From a virus (lineage: Duplodnaviria; Heunggongvirae; Uroviricota; Caudoviricetes): a DNA stretch of 38,853 bases. A program made the translations under genes and the position numbers. The stretch spans positions 1-38,853 of the IMG/VR virus record IMGVR_UViG_2563366820_000006; one strand, written 5' to 3'. Below, piece after piece: positions 2,994 through 38,853 of the stretch. How positions within the stretch are numbered: the stretch's first letter is position 1; each line of letters opens with the position of its first letter. Below the pieces are notes generated by a model, which did no database searches, had not been told where the DNA came from, and saw nothing but the letters and a program-made list of their open reading frames with translations.

Positions 2994-3191
2994 ACTATTT
3001 CCTCCTGAAATTGTTGTAATTCACTAGGATATTCATTTTAATTTGTATCATTTAGTACCAAAACCGCTATCAATTAACAAAGCCATCGTTGTGGTTTACC
3101 TTGCAGCCGTTTTTTGTCATTGACTCTATGTGAAAATAATGAATCATCATGAGATTGGCTCACACGTTCTTGAATTCGACGAGCTGTGTCT

Positions 3192-3746
3192 TTATTTATC
3201 TCCTGCCGGAAACCTCTGATACAAAGTCGATACGCCAACATCATAGATAATCGCAACTTTCTGGCGCGGAACTCCTGATGCAATTAATCGTCCGGCTTGT
3301 GCCCATTGTTCTGGTGTAAGTTTGGGACGACGTCCACCAATTCGTCCCTGTGCGCGAGCAGCTTCCAGTCCAGCTTTTGTTCGTTCAACAATCAGTTCTC
3401 GTTCCATTTCAGCCAGGGCCCCCATCACATGAAAGAAAAAGCGCCCCATTGGGGTACTGGTATCAATTGAATCCGTCAGACTACGAAAGTTGATGCCTCG
3501 TTCGCGCAACTCCTCCACCAGCACGACAAGATGCCGCATACTGCGCCCCAGCCGGTCCAGTTTCCAGACCACCAGCGTGTCACCTGCCGATAATGTCCTG
3601 AGCAGTTTTTTCAGTCCCGGCCTTTCGGACTTTGTACCGCTTATCTTGTCTTCAAAAATCAGCTCGCATCCTGCACAGTTCAGCGCATTACGTTGTAGAT
3701 CTGTGTTCTGGTCATTTGTTGATACGCGTACATAGCCAATAAGCAT
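3192..3746 (-). CDS. Site-specific DNA invertase, serine recombinase (Hin/Gin/Cin/Pin family)
   Basis: 184 aa starting MLIGYVRVSTNDQ (catalytic Ser region), resolvase core and C-terminal HTH; GGGGGA Shine-Dalgarno before the ATG at 3746; adjacent to tail-fibre cassettes. Confidence 0.92.
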   Translation of the reverse strand: MLIGYVRVSTNDQNTDLQRNALNCAGCELIFEDKISGTKSERPGLKKLLRTLSAGDTLVVWKLDRLGRSMRHLVVLVEELRERGINFRSLTDSIDTSTPMGRFFFHVMGALAEMERELIVERTKAGLEAARAQGRIGGRRPKLTPEQWAQAGRLIASGVPRQKVAIIYDVGVSTLYQRFPAGDK

Positions 3747-3789
3747 GGTAGATCCCCCTGACAAAAGCAGGAATGATGCCATTTGCTCG

Positions 3790-4146
3790 TTATTTCTGCA
3801 TTTTCATAAACGTTCTGTAAGCAGAATTAAAGCCGGTTAACGTTGGGCCTTCTGCAGTCATCACGAACCCTCGCCCAGCGCCTAAAGGCGCACCGCCATC
3901 ACCAGAATGAGTAAGCATGGCGCAGTCCGCTTTTTTGGGGAAAGGGATGCTAAATGTAATTCTCATTGTTTGCGTCGATAATGTCGGCGTAACCGCACCA
4001 CGACCATATTGCAGGATTTTCCCGTTGGGTAATTTCATCCATCCATCACCACTGGCAAAAGAGGCCATGTCCGGTATCTGATTTTCCCCTGTCCCTACAT
4101 CCCGTTTTGCCGCTTCTCCCAAACCAACGTCATCAACCAGCGACAC
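3790..4146 (-). pseudogene. Promoterless tail-fibre C-terminal variable cassette (S'v-like), lacking an N-terminal constant region
   Basis: 118-aa frame beginning ..VDDVGLGEAAKRDVGTGENQIPDM.., a motif typical of tail-fibre variable domains; in-frame stop a few codons upstream; overlaps a crossover-site-like sequence. Confidence 0.55.
4113..4139. repeat. Invertase crossover-site-like sequence (good left half-site only): cTTCTCCCAAACCAA
   Basis: 15 nt identical to the left half of the site at 5692..5717; matches the left half of the Hin/Gin-type consensus; the right half is degenerate. Confidence 0.5.
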
Positions 4147-4206
4147 GGTATCGATGAATTACAGTTGGTGGGCTGTTGGTGAGTAATTTTATTCAGGGTG
4201 ATTTAT

Positions 4207-4650
4207 ATGAACGAATATGTTTATAGCGCAAGGCATAATGCTTTTTTCCCTGTGGATATGATTGATAAATATAAATCAGAGGGATGGGATTTATCAGACG
4301 CTAAGGAAGTAAATCAAAATATTATCAGTGAGTTTATGGCTGAACTGCCACAAGGAAAAATCCGTATTGCCGGAGATGATGGGCTGCCTGCGTGGGCAGA
4401 GATTCCTCCACCCACGCATGAAGAACTTATTGAAATTACTGAATCAGAAAGACAGCTACTAATTAACCAAGCCAACGAATACATGAACAGTAAGCAATGG
4501 CCCGGTAAAGCCGCTATTGGTCGTCTGAAAGATGATGAACTGGCGCAATATAATTTGTGGCTGGATTATCTGGACGCACTGGAACTGGTTGATTCCTCCA
4601 GTGCGCCAGATATTGAATGGCCTGCGCCTCCGGCAGTTCAGGCCAGATGA
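4207..4650 (+). CDS. Tail fibre assembly protein (alternate, opposite-strand cassette)
   Basis: C-terminus LDYLDALELVDSSSAPDIEWPAPP is the conserved Tfa C-terminal motif; convergent and overlapping with the other tfa gene. Confidence 0.7.
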   Translation: MNEYVYSARHNAFFPVDMIDKYKSEGWDLSDAKEVNQNIISEFMAELPQGKIRIAGDDGLPAWAEIPPPTHEELIEITESERQLLINQANEYMNSKQWPGKAAIGRLKDDELAQYNLWLDYLDALELVDSSSAPDIEWPAPPAVQAR

Positions 4651-5224
4651 CATCCGGCGCGGTGCTGGTATCTGTTGCCGTCACCGCGTCAATGTAATCC
4701 AGCACAGCGTTAAGTCTGGTTGTTTCTGCCTGCGTCAGTTTACGTCCGGCCTGCAATTTCAGTTGAATCAGACTGATGGAAGCCATTGCTGCATCAATCA
4801 GTGACTGGCGCTGTGCTTCTGCCGCTTCTACTGCGGCACCGTGTTGTGCCTCAGTATCTGTCAACCATTTTTCACCATCCCATTTATCGTATGGCGTTAA
4901 CGGGGCGATAGTGGTTGTATTTTCGGGATAGTCGCCTAGTGCTGTGATTTCTTTGGCATCTCCCGTTTCGGTGTTATAGACGATTTCACCGCGATGGTCT
5001 GACACATATTCCCATGATTTTAAATCCACAGAACGGCAAATTGTATAACCAGCCTTAGATGTACCAGGAGCGTCTAAACAGGAATATGCTGGAATACCGA
5101 CACCCACTGCAAGATATTCAGTTGATGCAGAAATATATTCCCGCGTCTCACCATCATAGTTATAGACGGTAATATTCCCCGCCTTCGTGGTAATAAGCTC
5201 GCTATTTAATACGGCGTTATCCAT
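4514..5224 (-). CDS. Tail fibre assembly protein (Tfa)
   Basis: 236 aa with the conserved Tfa motif ..DYIDAVTATDTSTAPDVIWPELP; start codon overlaps the stop of the upstream tail-fibre gene. Confidence 0.8.
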   Translation of the reverse strand: MDNAVLNSELITTKAGNITVYNYDGETREYISASTEYLAVGVGIPAYSCLDAPGTSKAGYTICRSVDLKSWEYVSDHRGEIVYNTETGDAKEITALGDYPENTTTIAPLTPYDKWDGEKWLTDTEAQHGAAVEAAEAQRQSLIDAAMASISLIQLKLQAGRKLTQAETTRLNAVLDYIDAVTATDTSTAPDVIWPELPEAQAIQYLAHWRNQPVPVRPDNPATNYIAPVHHLSDDQ

Positions 5225-5994
5225 TATGCAGCCCTCACGATATAGTTAAATGCAATATTTCGTGGACGGGTTTCACTCCCGCCAGTATTACCGATACTCC
5301 CTCGTGAATGAAGTGTCGGTGATGGGATCAGACTCCCTCCGGCAGCGGCAGCATCAAGCCCCCTGCCTTGCGTATATGCTCTTCTGAAGATTGTCGCCAG
5401 TTCCCATTCCTCTTTTGAGTCATACCCATCGTTGGCGACAACAGGATGACGGTGCTTTTCCAGCATTCCGGCCTGAATACTCAATAAAACACGTCCTGCA
5501 TCAATACCGCGCCCGTCATCCCAGCCACGAATAAACTCACCGCGTAAATCAGGTAATTTATTTGTTGGATAAGCCTTTGCCAGTTCCGGGTATTCTTCAG
5601 CAGAAAATGCCGCACCGTTGCATTTCAGCCAGCCTGTTGGCGGTGTGGCTGAAGGCCATGGAACAGGCACACCAACAGGTAATGCAGAGCCTTCTCCCAA
5701 ACCAAGGTTTTCGAGAGCCGTTTTCACCGTGCCGTCCGATTTGATATCACCAAACGGATTCTTGCGGCTTAACAGCAACGCACGAAGTGCGGTAAGTAAC
5801 TGGTCGTGCCGCCCCTTCTCCAGGCTGGCACCGGATGCCTCCACCACGATGCAAAGTTCCTCCTGCAACATGTCAAAGTAGTCATCATCCAGATCGGTGG
5901 CAGGAGTGCCGGTCTGGGGGTTACCACGGGTAAAACCGTTCTTACCCGCGCCGAACTTATCCTTCTGCGCGGTTTTCGTGTCTATACGATGCAT
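5224..5994 (-). CDS. Tail fibre protein with C-terminal tail-collar domain
   Basis: N-terminus [26 protein letters not shown] typical of Mu/e14-type tail fibres; collar motif [22 protein letters not shown]; crossover site embedded at codons about 93 to 101 ([10 protein letters not shown]). Confidence 0.85.
5692..5717. repeat. 26-bp invertase crossover site (gix/hix/pix-like): TTCTCCCAAACC-AA-GGTTTTCGAGAG
   Basis: Imperfect palindrome with AAACC/GGTTT arms and central AA, matching the Hin/Gin-family recombination-site consensus; lies inside the tail-fibre gene at the constant/variable junction. Confidence 0.7.
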
Positions 5995-5997
5995 GGA

Positions 5998-6582
5998 TTA
6001 CTCCGGATATTTAAAAATTACGTAGGTATGCGACGGGCAGAGTTTATTAAGCACACACTCGACAACGGTGTCGCCCCAGATACGCAGTGCGGAATCACAG
6101 GGATCGCCACATGTCATCCAGGTGGTGTTGGTGGTGGCTGGCATGTTGACCTGCCAGTAATACCGCCATTCCGGCGCATTCACCGCGTCAGTACAGGCCG
6201 ATGAGCAGGTGAACGTGCTTTTGTCGTATCGCGTGATGTTGGCATCTGGTCTGCCCAGGGCAGCAAGCTGTGCAAGATAAAAATTCTCGTTGATGCCGCC
6301 CGCCAGGTTAACCTTCGCATCCAGCCGTTGCTGACGCTGGCGAAGGGTCTGTGTCCCTGCGGGAATACATTCATCCGGCAGACCGCACAGACGCTCCCAG
6401 CGGTTTATCAGTTCAGTGGTGGTGCGCGGATCCAGCTCCCGCATCAGGGCATCCGCACGCTGATGAACGCGGGTTAATGAAGGTGCCGCACCGGCAATCG
6501 CCGGATCGCTGGCTGACCACGCCGGACCGGGCGGCAGCAGTGCCGACAACAGACGGATGTAATCATCGTTTGTCACGTCCAT
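5998..6582 (-). CDS. Phage tail protein (Mu gp48-like / e14 YmfQ-like, DUF2313 family)
   Basis: 194 aa, positioned between the baseplate J gene and the tail fibre as in Mu-like and e14 tail modules. Confidence 0.65.
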
Positions 6583-7631
6583 GAAATCGTCCCCAGAACC
6601 GCCAGTTCATTTTTTGCAATGGAGATATTGTCCGCCGGTGCAAGCAACTGATGGCTGTATTCCCCGTTCGCACCGGAAATCGCCTCACTGATACGCGATA
6701 CCTTCAGTTCTCCCTGCGGATAACCATCACGCAGCAGGAACGAACGCAACTCCGCGGTAATGGCAGCCCGTATTTCTGGTGTGTCCGGCGTCACGCGGAT
6801 ATGAAAATCCACCGTATGTGCCACCGGCCTGAATACATACAAATCAGAGCCTGCCACCGGGGCCAGTGGCCCGATATGTTGTCTTGCTGCCGTTTCCGTT
6901 GATTCTTCCGGAATGGGATTAATCAGGTCACTGCTGGCAATCATCACACCGACAGTTCCCGTTCCCATCCAGTGACGGTATGTCCATGCGCGGGTAATGC
7001 CGGGCACTTCTTTAGCCCAGACGACATAGTCCCCGTCAGCCCCGCCCTGAGGCGTCCAGTAATACCGCTCAATGACGCGGGCGCGCCACGTTTCCAGCTC
7101 TTCAGTATCAAATCCGCCTGTCAGGGTATCTGCCACGCCGGAAGACGGCAGACCATTCACCGGCGTGACCAGGATTAATGCCGTACCGTCGTCAGCGTTA
7201 CCGACCGCGCCTGCATTTGAGCAGGCGATCGGCACGCGCAGGACACCACCGGAGCTGGTTGCATCGGCAGTTGCAGTATACTGAACCAGGTCATCGCGCT
7301 GAATAACACTCCCGGCGGTCACCTTCAGGCCATCGCTGACACCTTCCCAGCGCATATACCCGCTGGCAGCCGTGGCCCCCTTGCGCGGACACCGTTTCAT
7401 CGCAGCATGTCGCGCCAGCCAGGACTCATCGCACAGGTCAGGCAGCATGTTCATTGCCAGATAATCGATGTATCCGTAAACCGTATGCAGCGCCGCCGCA
7501 TACACCTTTGCCCGCACGTCTTCATCCATGCGCCGGAGCGTGTCGCTGACGTCCAGCCTGGCGAATAAATCGTTACGGAGCATACTGATATTTTCTGCCA
7601 GCGTCGGGCGCTGAAATTCACTGTCCGCCAT
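6573..7631 (-). CDS. Baseplate J-like protein (Mu gp47 family)
   Basis: 352 aa; baseplate_J-like sequence features; synteny. Confidence 0.8.
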
Positions 7632-11056: not shown

Positions 11057-11587
11057 TTAGCGAGTCAGAAACAACGAATCTTTATACTTTTGCTGTTGTT
11101 CATTTAAATACTTAGCTGTTTCATCGCTGGCAAATGGAAATATTACCGTATTTTTAGGCATGGTAATTTCTTTTTTGTCCAGCGTCAGAGTAAACATAGG
11201 AACATACTGAGCAGAGTAACGCACCGCAGAAACGAGCTCTAGTTTAGACTCTTCAATAACACTTAAATTATCCAGGCTAACTTTCTCTTCATCTTTTTTC
11301 TTTGACGCATTTAAAGTTTTTATTACTTTATTTAATTTCTCCTGAAAATCCTCCTTAAAGTTTTCAGGATTGCCGTCGACAACAAGAATCTGTTCACCCT
11401 GATTATCTGGAAAAATAATCTTTGCACTTATCAATTTATTTTCTTTATAAACATCACCAAGTTTTATGGCTCCTCCAGATAACTGAATAATATGTTCATC
11501 TTTAAAGGAGATGTTGCCAGAGATTATGAGAGATGAAAAAACAGCCGCTGCTCCAAGAATTACACTTGCTGTGATATAGCCTTTCAT
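11057..11587 (-). CDS. Secreted protein of unknown function (moron inserted in the tail operon)
   Basis: 176 aa; N-terminal signal-peptide-like hydrophobic segment MKGYITASVILGAAAVFSSLIISG; strongly AT-rich versus flanking tail genes; own upstream intergenic region and own terminator. Confidence 0.7.
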   Translation of the reverse strand: MKGYITASVILGAAAVFSSLIISGNISFKDEHIIQLSGGAIKLGDVYKENKLISAKIIFPDNQGEQILVVDGNPENFKEDFQEKLNKVIKTLNASKKKDEEKVSLDNLSVIEESKLELVSAVRYSAQYVPMFTLTLDKKEITMPKNTVIFPFASDETAKYLNEQQQKYKDSLFLTR

Positions 11588-25761: not shown

Positions 25762-26778
25762 ATGTACAATTTGGATGTATCAAAAAAAGAAATCGGTAGA
25801 GTCGGTGATCGGCTCGCATCATTAGCAGAGAGTAATCAAACCCTCCCAGAGAGCGATCTTAATATTTTGCACTCGTGGAGAATGCTACATCTATATCCTT
25901 TAACTAAGCTCACTGAATATTTAACTAGAGAAGCAAATTCAATAAATCAAAATTGTTTAATATCATCAAGAATTAAACGACTCCCATCTATAATATCAAA
26001 ACTTCAACGTTTTGAAGATATGAAGCTAAACAAAATGCAGGATTTGGGGGGGTGTAGAGCTATACTTAGCAATCTTGATGAAGTATATAATACATATGAT
26101 AATATTAAAAAATTAAAATTTAAGCATCAAATAGTCAGAACAGATGATTACATTAAACAAGTAAAAGACTCTGGATATAGAAGTTTACATTTAGTTTATT
26201 CTTTTCAGAATGAGAAGCATGTTAATTTAAATGGGTTAAAAATCGAAATTCAACTCAGAACAGCTATACAACACAGTTGGGCTACTGCGGTTGAAATGGT
26301 TGGCCTTTTTAGGAAAGAATCTCTAAAATCTAGTTTTGGAGATCCTGATTGGTTACGTTTCTTTGAGCTAGTGTCAGAGTTATTTTATGGCATAGAATCA
26401 GGGAAATCCGTTGGTCATTATATGAAAACATCCAGTGACCTAAAAATATTAACAGAAAAACTCAACGTATTCACAATACTTGAAGCCTACAACAAAGTAG
26501 CAAGCCACATTGATTCCTCTGATACATACACCTCGGGTTTTTGCGTTATAATAGTCGATACAGAAAAGCGCAAAATGAATATAAAAAGTTTTCCTGTCCA
26601 TAGCCATAAAGCAGCATCTGATTTTTATATAAAAGAAGAAAAAAATTGTGAAGGGATAAAAGGATATGAGGTAGCCATGGTATCAGTTGATGATATATCA
26701 AATTTAAAAAATGCGTACCCTGCATTCTTCCTAGACACAAAAACATTCTTAAATAACCTGAGTAGATTTATTTTCTAA
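25762..26778 (+). CDS. RelA/SpoT-homologue (RSH) synthetase-domain protein; CapRel-like fused toxSAS toxin-antitoxin candidate
   Basis: 338 aa with the ordered RelA/SpoT synthetase motifs SRIKRLPSIISKL, DLGGCRAIL, GYRSLHLVY and EIQLRTAIQHSWA; about 150 aa C-terminal extension; no adjacent small ORF; AT-rich; opposite strand to the flanking Q and lysis genes. Confidence 0.8.
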   Translation: MYNLDVSKKEIGRVGDRLASLAESNQTLPESDLNILHSWRMLHLYPLTKLTEYLTREANSINQNCLISSRIKRLPSIISKLQRFEDMKLNKMQDLGGCRAILSNLDEVYNTYDNIKKLKFKHQIVRTDDYIKQVKDSGYRSLHLVYSFQNEKHVNLNGLKIEIQLRTAIQHSWATAVEMVGLFRKESLKSSFGDPDWLRFFELVSELFYGIESGKSVGHYMKTSSDLKILTEKLNVFTILEAYNKVASHIDSSDTYTSGFCVIIVDTEKRKMNIKSFPVHSHKAASDFYIKEEKNCEGIKGYEVAMVSVDDISNLKNAYPAFFLDTKTFLNNLSRFIF

Positions 26779-35727: not shown

Positions 35728-35934
35728 ATGCTGAACCTCGATTGTGTTCCTATCTCAACTTATTGCAAAGAAACTGGCGAAACTCCTGAAGCAATAAACA
35801 AACGTGTACAGCGCGGTGTTTGGCGTGAAGGTGTTCAGGTTTTAAAGGTTGAAGGCGTTAAGGAGAGGTGGATTGATCTTAGTGAGGTTGCAAAATGGGC
35901 CAGACAAAACTGCTCAAACTACCGCGCGGCGTAA
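35728..35934 (+). CDS. Excisionase-like DNA-binding protein (Xis)
   Basis: 68 aa from the ATG with GGAG Shine-Dalgarno; basic winged-helix-like sequence with conserved Trp residues; immediately upstream of and overlapping int. Confidence 0.6.
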   Translation: MLNLDCVPISTYCKETGETPEAINKRVQRGVWREGVQVLKVEGVKERWIDLSEVAKWARQNCSNYRAA

Positions 35935-37061
35935 CAATCAGGAAACACCGCCAGGGCGAAACGATCAATATAACTTTCACCTACAAAGGCGTTAAATGTC
36001 GTGAGCCTCTTTCCAATCTGGAAGTAACACCAAAGAACATTAAATACGCCGAGCGCACACTCGGCGAAATTCATAATAAGATCGAAAGGGGAACATTCAT
36101 TTATGCGGAATATTTTCCCCGTTCTGCTCGTTTGAAAATTTTTGGTAATGCTGCTGCAGGCAAAACGGTAAAAATGTACCTGGACGAATACCTTGAAATC
36201 TGCGAAACGAGAAAACTTTCACCATCTACGATTGGTGGTTATAAAAAATGCCGTAGTGCGTTAGCCTCACTCCACATTTGCCCTGCAAGTGAATTAACAC
36301 CAGCAATCCTGAAAGCGTGGATTCAAAGCCAGAAAACGACCTTAAAAACAATTCGCAACCAGTTATCTTTCCTGCGGTCAGCACTTGATGAAGCCGTAAC
36401 CGATGGGGTACTTCAAATTAACCCCGTATCGTTGGTAACTGCTTCGCGCTACCAAAGTGATAAGTCAGAAGCAGAAAGCAGCTATGTGGTTGATCCGCTA
36501 TCACCAGCAGAAGTTGATGCATTACTAGCAGCAGCCGGAAACAAACAATGGGAAAATCTGTTCCGGTTCGCCATACATACAGGCCTGCGTAGTTCTGAAT
36601 TATGTGCCCTACGATGGCATGATATCGACTTTGTTGGAAAAACAGCCCATGTTCAGAGCGCAAGTGTTGTCGGAGTTATCAAAGGAACAAAGACAAAAGC
36701 CGGTACCCGTAAAGTTGAACTGACTGAAGAAGCAATGTTGGCGTTGATAAACCAGAAGCCATTTACATTCATGAAGGATGCTACTGTCTTTGAAGATCCA
36801 AAGACCAATAAACCCTGGGCAAGTGCTGATGCAATTAGGAAAAAAGCATGGGTGCCAACATTGCGAAAAGCAGGTATTCGTTACAGAAACCCATATCAAA
36901 CCAGGCATACATTCGCCACCAGACATATCAGCCGGGGAGCAAACCTGTTTTGGCTTGCAGCTCAAATGGGGCATAAAGGGCCTGAGATGCTTTTCAGGCA
37001 CTATGGCTCATATCTGAAGGAATATGATGGACAAACAAGCTTGAAGAAGATAACAATATAA
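35895..37061 (+). CDS. Tyrosine integrase (phage integrase family)
   Basis: 388 aa; N-terminal arm-binding-type domain; C-terminal catalytic region with conserved R .. H-x-x-R .. Y pattern (..TRHTFATRH .. LFRHYGSY). Confidence 0.92.
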   Translation: MGQTKLLKLPRGVTIRKHRQGETINITFTYKGVKCREPLSNLEVTPKNIKYAERTLGEIHNKIERGTFIYAEYFPRSARLKIFGNAAAGKTVKMYLDEYLEICETRKLSPSTIGGYKKCRSALASLHICPASELTPAILKAWIQSQKTTLKTIRNQLSFLRSALDEAVTDGVLQINPVSLVTASRYQSDKSEAESSYVVDPLSPAEVDALLAAAGNKQWENLFRFAIHTGLRSSELCALRWHDIDFVGKTAHVQSASVVGVIKGTKTKAGTRKVELTEEAMLALINQKPFTFMKDATVFEDPKTNKPWASADAIRKKAWVPTLRKAGIRYRNPYQTRHTFATRHISRGANLFWLAAQMGHKGPEMLFRHYGSYLKEYDGQTSLKKITI

Positions 37062-37079
37062 TCCAAGCATGAAACTATT

Positions 37080-37103
37080 GGCCACAATTTGTGGCCATTT
37101 TAC
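37080..37103 (+). terminator. Hairpin / terminator-like element after int
   Basis: Perfect palindrome GGCCACAA-t-TTGTGGCC followed by ATTTTAC. Confidence 0.45.
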
Positions 37104-37119
37104 GGAGCAAGATAGAAAC

Positions 37120-38853
37120 ATGGCAAATCAAATTACCAAACTAAAAAATATAAATGTTGTGAAGTTTCGCGGACTGAAAAATATAAACATCGAGTTTGGT
37201 TCTCGCCTAACTGTTATTTGTGGTAAAAATGGCACATCTAAATCCACAATTCTTGGCATTATCGCCCAAATATTTAGCTTTACAAAGGACTTTACCAAAA
37301 ACCCTGAGACTGATTTAACACAATATAAAACATTAACAAATGGCAGCTTCAAGTCAGCTTTCAGCGAACATTTTAGGCTTTCAGAACAATTTGATGTTCC
37401 TGGTTCAATGGACGTCAAAATTAGTGTCTATGATGGTGCATCGAACAAACATCTTGAAAAACTAACATTAGGTTTATACAGCTACAGTGACAGAGATAAA
37501 TCAAGGCCTGTAGTCAGGGGAAATGATTCAATACCGGAAAAAAACCAAAGTAGAAACGTTACTCATCCTGTTATTTTTTTAAGCTTAGCACGACTTCTTC
37601 CTATTACATTAAGGACTGATTACTCAACACGGGATGTTCAGTACATCAATGAAAATTCTGATGAAATCAGAATGATGAGTAACCAACTCTTACTAAAAAA
37701 CAATGGAAGCTCAGTAACAGCAACAAAAGGTACTATCGATTCAATGGTTGTCCATGGTGACAATTATGATCACCAATCAGTATCTGTTGGTGAAGATAAT
37801 GTTGGACAATTAATCCAAGCAATTTTTTCATTTAAAAGATTGAAGGAAACTTATTCTGATTATCATGGCGGAATATTGTTAATTGATGAAGCCGATGCAG
37901 GTCTTTTCCCTGCTGCACAGTTAGAGCTAATTAATATTCTAACTAAAGCAGCAAAACAATACGATCTGCAAATAATCATGACCTCGCACTCTCCATTAAT
38001 AATAGAGGATATCTATAATCGTTCAAAACAAGATAGTGATAGCTTTAAAACAATATATCTTACAGACACATATGGAGATATTAAAACAAAGAATAATCTT
38101 TCATGGACAGATATCCACGCTGATTTACATGTTGAAACTGTAAAAATTAATGATGACATTTGTCTTCCAAAGGCAAATGTATATTTTGAAGACAAAGAAG
38201 GTTTCGACTTTTTCAAACAATTGATAACAGATCGTAAAATAAATAAAATATTAAATCCATTAGGGAATATAAATATTAGCTGCTCTGCCATGCTTGACTT
38301 AATGGCAAGAAAAATACCAGAATTTACAGCTAAAAGCTTGATCGTCTTAGACGGTGATGTTGTTCACGACAATAGTGCTAATGCAAAAAAAGCCAAAAAA
38401 GAAAAAAACTTATGTTTGCTTCCAAGCACCTTACCTCCAGACCAAATGATTTTTGAGTTTTTATATAATTTACCACCTGATGATGCATATTGGGAAAATA
38501 AAAATAAATTTACAAAAGCTGTTTTTATGAAAACAGCTAAAGACATAATTGCAACGCTAAAGATTGGTAACGCTCCGATTGATTTAAAAATCCTTATAGA
38601 TAATTATAAAAAAGTTAACAAAAACCATGGCGGGATAGTTAGAAAACTGTTTAAAGATTTTGCACATACGACTCAATTTCAGGCCCAAGTAAAAGGGCGA
38701 GTTAAAGATAACCCATATCGATATTGGGTCGAGAAAAATCCTGTGCAATCGGATAGCTTCAAGAATGAACTAATAAAGAGTCTTAAAGTTATTATGACAA
38801 GTGGACATGGTGTCGATTCTGCTACCATCTCATCATATCTGTCAGATAACTAA
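37120..38853 (+). CDS. ABC-type ATPase fused to a C-terminal TOPRIM-like domain (OLD-family-like; P2 Old / PARIS-like defence candidate)
   Basis: Start taken at MANQITKLKNINVVKF (tracked ORF starts at 37069). Walker A GKNGTSKST; Walker B ILLIDEADAGL; H-loop-like MTSHSP; C-terminal acidic motifs YFEDKEG and LIVLDGD about 45 aa apart. AT-rich; ends at the window edge. Confidence 0.75.
   Translation: MANQITKLKNINVVKFRGLKNINIEFGSRLTVICGKNGTSKSTILGIIAQIFSFTKDFTKNPETDLTQYKTLTNGSFKSAFSEHFRLSEQFDVPGSMDVKISVYDGASNKHLEKLTLGLYSYSDRDKSRPVVRGNDSIPEKNQSRNVTHPVIFLSLARLLPITLRTDYSTRDVQYINENSDEIRMMSNQLLLKNNGSSVTATKGTIDSMVVHGDNYDHQSVSVGEDNVGQLIQAIFSFKRLKETYSDYHGGILLIDEADAGLFPAAQLELINILTKAAKQYDLQIIMTSHSPLIIEDIYNRSKQDSDSFKTIYLTDTYGDIKTKNNLSWTDIHADLHVETVKINDDICLPKANVYFEDKEGFDFFKQLITDRKINKILNPLGNINISCSAMLDLMARKIPEFTAKSLIVLDGDVVHDNSANAKKAKKEKNLCLLPSTLPPDQMIFEFLYNLPPDDAYWENKNKFTKAVFMKTAKDIIATLKIGNAPIDLKILIDNYKKVNKNHGGIVRKLFKDFAHTTQFQAQVKGRVKDNPYRYWVEKNPVQSDSFKNELIKSLKVIMTSGHGVDSATISSYLSDN

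Follow-up and report, generated by a model that had tools for sequence, protein, structure and literature searches.

A 313-bp inversion between the right crossover site and a sequence inside the silent cassette has disrupted the tail-fibre switch of an e14/Pin-type prophage locus

How does a prophage that carries an apparently intact DNA invertase gene, a tail-fibre gene with a crossover site inside it and two tail-fibre assembly (tfa) genes on opposite strands come to have only one full crossover site and a silent fibre cassette in two pieces? The question is raised by a 38,853-nt stretch of DNA from a virus of the Caudoviricetes (IMG/VR record IMGVR_UViG_2563366820_000006, positions 1 to 38,853), hereafter the window, whose open reading frames (ORFs) were scanned with Pfam, PHROG and PADLOC profiles. 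In what follows, Sc and Sv denote the constant and variable parts of the expressed fibre and U its tfa; S'v and U' denote the silent variable part and its tfa; pixR (R when crosses between sites are written) is the right crossover site, and Q is a quasi-site within the silent cassette. Our reading, to which we give a probability of roughly 85%, is that this is a switch of the e14/Pin type that appears to have been broken by a Pin-type invertase recombining pixR with Q.

When positions 3100-6100 of the window were compared by megablast with 5,426 complete E. coli genomes, many related loci were found. The closest relative is in E. coli O155 NWU_3 (L001), where two collinear pieces together account for 90% of the query. 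Both L001 and a locus from an O157:H7 genome (L002) have the canonical arrangement, which consists of pinE (-), a 136-aa gp53-like ORF (+), tfa (+), tfa (-), the fibre gene (-) and ymfQ (-). By blastn, window positions 3001-3814 correspond to L001 1402-2215 with 100% identity and positions 4126-6200 to L001 2527-4601 with 98.9% identity, while positions 3810-4130 match L001 2531-2211 on the opposite strand, with 321 of 321 nucleotides identical. Since the flanks are collinear and the piece between them is reversed, the window differs from L001 by one small inversion, which is 313 bp in size and extends from pixR to Q. The inversion is exact, in that the S'v ORF of L001 is recovered unchanged when positions 3815-4125 are re-inverted in silico. 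Between the window and L001 there are no differences in the inverted piece and only four in the remainder of the segment, which makes the event a recent one.

The two breakpoints could be placed to within a 5-bp overlap. One of them falls on the central dinucleotide of pixR, i.e., that of a bona fide crossover site. The other falls in Q, TTCTGCTTACAG AA CGTCATCAACCA (L001 2515-2540), which lies near the end of the gp53-like ORF, in the codons for ..NSAYR|TSSTS... Q is only weakly similar to a crossover site. It has the same AA core as pixR, shares the sequence AACGT with it, and is located 313 bp away in cis and in the inverted orientation. A breakpoint at a genuine 2-bp core, paired with a weak, inverted look-alike that shares this core, is the signature of quasi-site recombination by a serine invertase of the Hin/Gin/Cin/Pin type.

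The crossover sites themselves tell a consistent story. Site A (Table 1), which the sequence-only reading had already placed in the fibre gene and described as encoding LGLGEG, is unique in the window, and none of 100 shuffled sequences contained a match to it. The left sites of K-12 e14, L001 and L002 have exactly its sequence, and it sits in frame at the constant/variable junction of the fibre, where it encodes ..ENLGLGEGS.., with the constant fibre N-terminus outside the segment. No third full crossover site turned up in the window, even when as many as three mismatches were allowed. The inner half and core of site A, TTCTCCCAAACCAA, occur again at positions 4114-4127; the longer CTTCTCCCAAACCAA, at positions 4113-4127, is identical to site A at 15 of 15 nucleotides, as that reading had stated, and the match is 17/18 across positions 4113-4130. 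This copy is on the same strand as site A, so the two are in direct orientation.

The origin of that repeat is apparent from the relatives. The right site of L001, TTTTCATAAACG TT GGTTTGGGAGAA (positions 2202-2227; reverse complement TTCTCCCAAACC AA CGTTTATGAAAA), is identical to K-12 e14 pixR, TTCTCCCAAACCAACGTTTATGAAAA. In the window, its two halves are found in separate hybrid sites. J1 combines the outer half of pixR with the left half of Q, and J2 combines the inner half of pixR with the right half of Q. J2 is the second half-site that had been flagged from the sequence alone, whereas J1 is recognised only by comparing the window with its relatives. The search for a third, inverted site was thus answered in part, as J1 is inverted relative to site A and occupies the conventional position beside pin, but only its outer half is conventional. 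Instead of the two inverted 26-bp sites of an e14- or Mu-type switch, the window therefore holds one full site and the two hybrids. In contrast, the relatives L001-L004, which include K-12 e14, have exactly two sites each, in inverted orientation (4/4).

The inversion has clear coding consequences for the silent cassette. The expressed fibre is composed of Sc (5706-5994), joined at site A to Sv (5224-5703), which carries the Collar domain. On the silent side, both tfa genes are present, but S'v is split into an inverted body and a short 3' remnant, and there are consequently no two mirror-image pairs of a variable part and a tfa. Translation from position 3776 now gives MPFARYFCIFINVL and then a stop, while the same start in L001 opens the intact 136-aa gp53-like ORF. 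Annotations of relatives show the silent cassette as a complete ORF whose start lies within the outer half of the right site (MPFARYFCIFINVGLGE..; L001 2177-2587). StfE2, the e14 ORF at the equivalent position, is reported to block adsorption of phage T2 (PMC12529663).

The 118-aa minus-strand ORF, which encodes ..VGLGEAAK.., is a product of the inversion. It is made up of the antisense of the S'v 3' remnant, the S'v residues GLGE..AYRT and a nonsense tail, FMKMQK, before the stop. The sequence-only reading had regarded this frame as tail-fibre-related and as encoding GLGE, and the Gp53-like_C and PHROG matches bear this out. The Pfam match is, however, truncated, and covers positions 1-71 of the 84-position model versus 1-83 of 84 in the intact relative. 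An exact-protein look-up of this ORF gave no match.

The same reading correctly identified the opposite-strand tfa, which has a Caudo_TAP domain, but held that no variable fibre segment lies upstream of it. In fact, the S'v remnant directly precedes this gene on the same strand. The remnant, together with tfa U and the hybrid site by pin, had been overlooked. Its sequence is that of the S'v C-terminus in L001 and L002, and it closely resembles the end of the expressed fibre in L003. In this P2-like prophage, the module forms the 3' end of a 501-aa fibre gene, with the same 147-aa tfa coming next, which shows that S'v and U' are a functional pair. In L001 and L002, the counterpart of U' carries the annotation tail fiber assembly protein. 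A modelled canonical flip produces an in-frame Sc-S'v fibre of 220 aa. A promoter scan gave promoter-like matches no more numerous than those in shuffled sequence.

A separate change affects the tfa of the expressed cassette. Alignment with L001, L002 and K-12 tfaE indicates that tfa U has lost its stop codon (TAG to CAG at positions 4622-4624, as a minus-strand codon). The protein is extended from 200 to 236 aa, and the 36 added residues are read from the antisense of the convergent tfa U'. This change is also found in L001, where PGAP labels the gene a pseudogene, and is unrelated to the inversion.

Table 1. Features of the fibre-switch locus and its immediate neighbours (positions in the window)
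Feature	Positions	Strand	Profile match
pin, DNA invertase, 184 aa, apparently intact	3192-3746	-	Pfam Resolvase 1.5e-51; HTH_7 3.6e-13
Former silent-cassette start ORF (MPFARYFCIFINV), with the outer half of what was the right site; stop after 14 codons	3776-3814	+	
118-aa ORF, artefact of the inversion	3790-4146	-	Pfam Gp53-like_C 1.5e-9; phrog_1396 (tail fibre)
Hybrid site J1, TTTTCATAAACG TT CTGTAAGCAGAA (pixR outer half + Q left half); core 3813-3814; inverted relative to site A	3801-3826	+	
Inverted piece, most of S'v (Gp53-like_C), now on the strand of the expressed fibre gene	3815-4125	-	
Hybrid site J2, TTCTCCCAAACC AA CGTCATCAACCA (pixR inner half + Q right half); core 4126-4127; direct relative to site A	4114-4139	+	
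S'v 3' remnant, last 19 codons (TSSTSDTVSMNYSWWAVGE) and stop, directly upstream of tfa U'	4127-4186	+	
tfa U', assembly protein of the silent cassette, intact	4207-4650	+	Pfam Caudo_TAP 2e-30; phrog_188
tfa U, assembly protein of the expressed cassette	4514-5224	-	Pfam Caudo_TAP 6.4e-32
Expressed tail-fibre gene, 256 aa	5224-5994	-	Collar domain
Site A, TTCTCCCAAACC AA GGTTTTCGAGAG (= TTCTCCCAAACCAAGGTTTTCGAGAG), sole intact 26-bp crossover site; core 5704-5705	5692-5717	+	
YmfQ/Mu gp48-like baseplate gene, directly upstream of the fibre gene	5998-6582	-	Pfam Phage_Mu_Gp48 1.9e-26
Baseplate J/gp47 gene	6573-7631	-	

The arrangement found in the window is rare. With 100-nt queries centred on J1 and J2, the junctions were found in 0 of 1,054 and 0 of 868 complete E. 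coli genomes that carry the respective half-sequences, and a 30-mer spanning J2 had no occurrences in GTDB representative genomes, IMG/VR or JGI metagenomes. Intact Q is present in 49 IMG/VR contigs, and in all 47 that could be assessed a crossover site lies 313 bp upstream in the inverted orientation, so that none is aberrant. The diagnostic 92-aa product (WP_432704368.1), looked for among about 15 billion proteins, was traced to a single contig, scaffold KB733122.1 of GCA_000352685.1 (E. coli KTE146), which has the gene order of the window. This assembly is probably the source of the window. The idea that the state of the window is ancestral or common was rejected on the basis of these counts (0/868, 0/1,054 and 0/47). 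The two canonical junctions, on the other hand, were found in 783 (Sc-S'v) and 558 (Sc-Sv) complete E. coli genomes. Since both are common, the normal switch appears to flip in nature, in agreement with observations of natural e14 switching (PMC4272514; PMC12529663).

The pin gene had been judged intact from the sequence alone, and its full length and its Resolvase and HTH_7 domains support that judgement. The encoded protein shares 97.8% of its residues with K-12 PinE and 100% with its L001 counterpart. Invertases of the Hin/Gin/Cin/Pin group are proteins of about 185-200 aa with an N-terminal resolvase domain, an active-site serine near residue 9-10 and a C-terminal helix-turn-helix. Judged by its domains, its length and its N-terminus, MLIGYVRVST, which contains the catalytic serine, the pin product belongs to this group of small serine recombinases. 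In Hin, Gin and Cin, the Fis-dependent recombinational enhancer is located in the 5' part of the invertase gene. Over its first 200 nt, pin has 97.5% identity with K-12 pinE; a scan of the pin 5' end with a degenerate Fis motif gave nothing interpretable.

Based on these observations, we propose the following course of events. The normal order would have been the constant fibre part, the left site, Sv and tfa U, then the reversed tfa U' and S'v, the right site and pin. A Pin-type serine invertase, either the resident enzyme or another one supplied in trans, would have recombined pixR with Q, which are inverted relative to each other and both have the AA core. The body of S'v would have been flipped and pixR split into J1 and J2, with the last 19 codons of S'v staying in front of U'. 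Because the canonical right site has been taken apart and the silent cassette broken in two, the normal flip-flop is no longer possible; the A x R flip would have been lost and the prophage locked on the Sv (Collar)/U fibre. The suggestion, made from the sequence alone, of a frozen or partially decayed switch was therefore essentially right, although the cause was not identified there. We infer the catalysis by an invertase, the identity of the enzyme and the relative rates of the remaining reactions from sequence. There is precedent for such an event: P1 Cin rarely uses secondary crossover sites (Arber interview, PMC4270481), the choice of quasi-site has been attributed to the central dinucleotide (Iida and Hiestand-Nauer 1987, as cited in PMC4134206), and PinQ is reported to act in trans on e14 (PMC12529663).

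Several points weigh against this proposal. Invertase catalysis is deduced from the position of the breakpoints, and Q is a poor site that matches the inner half-site at 6/12 positions in its left half and 4/12 in its right half. Q does rank second of the 128 correctly oriented AA-core positions of the whole invertible segment, and is the only AACGT position with a positive score, on a half-site position weight matrix, albeit one built from only five distinct real half-sites. Furthermore, the breakpoints share a 5-bp inverted microhomology (AACGT/ACGTT) that could in principle support a replication-based inversion. Such an invertase-independent event, for instance a template switch during replication, or illegitimate recombination, at the palindromic AACGT(T) of 5-6 bp, would have hit the crossover site by chance; in its favour, the breakpoints have only AACGT in common and Q resembles the site consensus weakly. 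We nevertheless consider it improbable, as a breakpoint located to about 5 bp in a 1.9-kb segment falls on the canonical 2-bp core, for which we estimate a chance of well under 1%, and the partner has both a matching core and a high rank. Both points are predicted by the quasi-site rule for Cin.

Another concern is a local assembly error, which is conceivable since the window probably derives from a draft scaffold of 2013; in that case, the true DNA would be canonical. The arrangement is indeed a singleton, confined to the scaffold-level assembly GCA_000352685.1, and invertible regions are known to trouble assemblers (PMC4134206). However, mixing the two canonical orientations cannot yield this arrangement. 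The piece is bounded by just 5 bp of inverted identity, one of its boundaries lies in unique coding sequence and at neither canonical site, and the breakpoints obey the core rule of the recombinase, all of which makes an artefact very unlikely. We find it hardly credible that the layout is a designed variant, in which Q would be a genuine third site of a multi-state switch like Min or a shufflon, or in which the fibre C-terminus would be replaced by deletion. Q is kept in every relative examined, and multi-site systems do exist, e.g., the four-site L009 (IMGVR_UViG_2693429728_000004). Q lies in coding sequence, though, so its conservation is explained by the protein. Moreover, the R x Q product occurs in no other genome or contig, and, reversion apart, the reactions all lead to defective fibres. 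With only one full site in the window and defective alternative products, a Min-like multi-site system was rejected.

Under the quasi-site proposal, the sites that are left could still take part in a few reactions. Recombination between J1 and J2 would restore the canonical arrangement; each of these sites keeps one natural half-site, and reversion is therefore expected to be rare. An A x J1 inversion would give a truncated fibre of 98 aa. Recombination of A with J2 would be a topologically disfavoured deletion, leaving a 208-aa fibre with the wrong C-terminus and no tfa. As is established for the Fis/enhancer invertasome, Hin/Gin/Cin/Pin-type invertases disfavour deletion between direct sites. 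The sequence-only reading had entertained the possibility that such a deletion serves to replace the fibre C-terminus. We rejected a programmed deletion, given that the product would lack the last 18 residues of the Gp53-like domain, end in a nonsense tail and have no tfa, and that the arrangement is a singleton.

By its enzyme, site sequences and gene order, the locus is assigned to the e14/Pin family. The e14 P segment of K-12 with PinE (Plasterk and van de Putte 1985, as cited in PMC4272514; PMC12529663) has the same order of ymfQ, fibre gene, tfa, reversed tfa, reversed silent fibre part and pin. The left site is identical in e14, the right site of L001 is that of e14, and the constant part of the fibre is 97% identical at the nucleotide level. 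Unlike e14, the window has a split right site and an inverted silent-cassette body, and its silent variable part, a gp53-like module, matches nothing in K-12 e14 at the nucleotide level. In addition, e14 is a 15-kb remnant, whereas the element in the window is a prophage of ~36 kb beside ssrA with head, tail and integrase genes. The Mu G/Gin and P1 C/Cin systems likewise have a serine invertase beside a segment with two alternative fibre C-termini and their assembly genes, and 26-bp sites at the constant/variable junction; they differ in their fibre modules and site sequences, and in that both of their sites are intact.

The closest parallel for the event itself is quasi-site inversion by P1 Cin, in which a true site is paired with a sequence of weak similarity but the same central dinucleotide; an inversion results, with new gene fusions, and the frequency is low. 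The Cin events were selected in laboratory plasmid and phage constructs, while the product in the window is fixed in the prophage of a natural isolate. Here, furthermore, the quasi-site is inside the invertible segment and the switch has been disabled. In a literature search on secondary crossover sites and quasi-sites, most of the papers found concerned integrons, the sole relevant items being the Arber interview and a paper on EC958. Neither the system nor the type of accident is new; the novelty lies in this natural instance and its quasi-site.

The Min system of p15B and L009 resemble the window in having more than two copies of the inner half-site and cassettes in mixed orientations. They have several full sites that head intact cassettes, in contrast to the one full site, two hybrids and no intact alternative cassette of the window. 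The inner half-site copies of L009 number four, three in one orientation and one in the other, and L009 may be a multi-inversion fibre system. In two further loci, L007 and L008, the same outer half occurs at both sites. A two-site switch would not be expected to show this, and the reason may be that mixed orientations were assembled together.

The fibre-switch locus forms the ssrA-proximal end of the prophage. At the start of the window lie smpB and the gene for tmRNA, ssrA (698-1060), after which comes the prophage, with genes for an HK97-type capsid, a large terminase, a Mu-type baseplate (gp44-48 homologues), an S24 repressor and an integrase (35895-37061). On the minus strand, from high to low coordinates, the baseplate J/gp47 gene, the YmfQ/gp48 gene, the fibre gene and tfa U are followed by the plus-strand tfa and then by the 118-aa ORF and the invertase gene, both on the minus strand; the ymfQ-fibre gene order is that of e14 ymfQ-stfP. 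Between ssrA and pin (1270-2993), there are four ORFs of 165, 124 and 114 aa (+) and 70 aa (-). None has a Pfam or PADLOC match, and only the first has a PHROG match (unknown function). They are kept in L001 from about position 1725 on, with divergent sequence upstream of that point.

Three other genes of the window deserve mention. A 176-aa ORF with a hydrophobic N-terminus (11057-11587, -), located between the tape-measure gene and the next tail gene, has phrog_5485 (unknown function) as its sole match and looks like a moron-type insertion. On the strand opposite to the neighbouring phage genes, a 338-aa ORF (25762-26778, +) has a RelA_SpoT nucleotidyltransferase domain (Pfam 6.2e-21) and a match to phrog_4773, and aligns end to end with the PADLOC candidate single-gene defence family PDC-S33 (1.9e-114); it is probably a defence cargo gene of the toxSAS/CapRel type. 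Directly after the integrase gene and cut by the end of the window, an AAA_15/AAA_21 ATPase ORF of at least 594 aa (37069-38853, +) has moderate matches to defence ATPases of the PtuA, AriA and GajA types (about 1e-17 to 1e-20) and may be a defence gene at the border of the prophage or island.

One might also ask if Q, which is conserved inside the gp53-like cassette, serves Pin-type invertases as a lock, through inversions that are infrequent yet biologically meaningful and that disable switching and destroy the silent-cassette ORF. An anti-phage role has been claimed for the e14 ORF at the equivalent position (PMC12529663). We regard such a lock as very doubtful. Were it true, prophages would regularly have their fibre switches frozen or retired through inversion at secondary sites.

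As it stands, the locus provides a clean natural example, resolved to 5 bp or less at its breakpoints, of an invertase that has apparently broken its own switch through a secondary site, an activity known from laboratory work with P1 Cin and rarely documented in wild genomes. The inversion also explains an odd annotation, namely a truncated gp53-like ORF next to an apparently orphan tfa. We predict that the prophage would make one type of fibre only, and pixR x Q offers a defined pair of substrates with which the off-target activity of Pin-family invertases could be measured.

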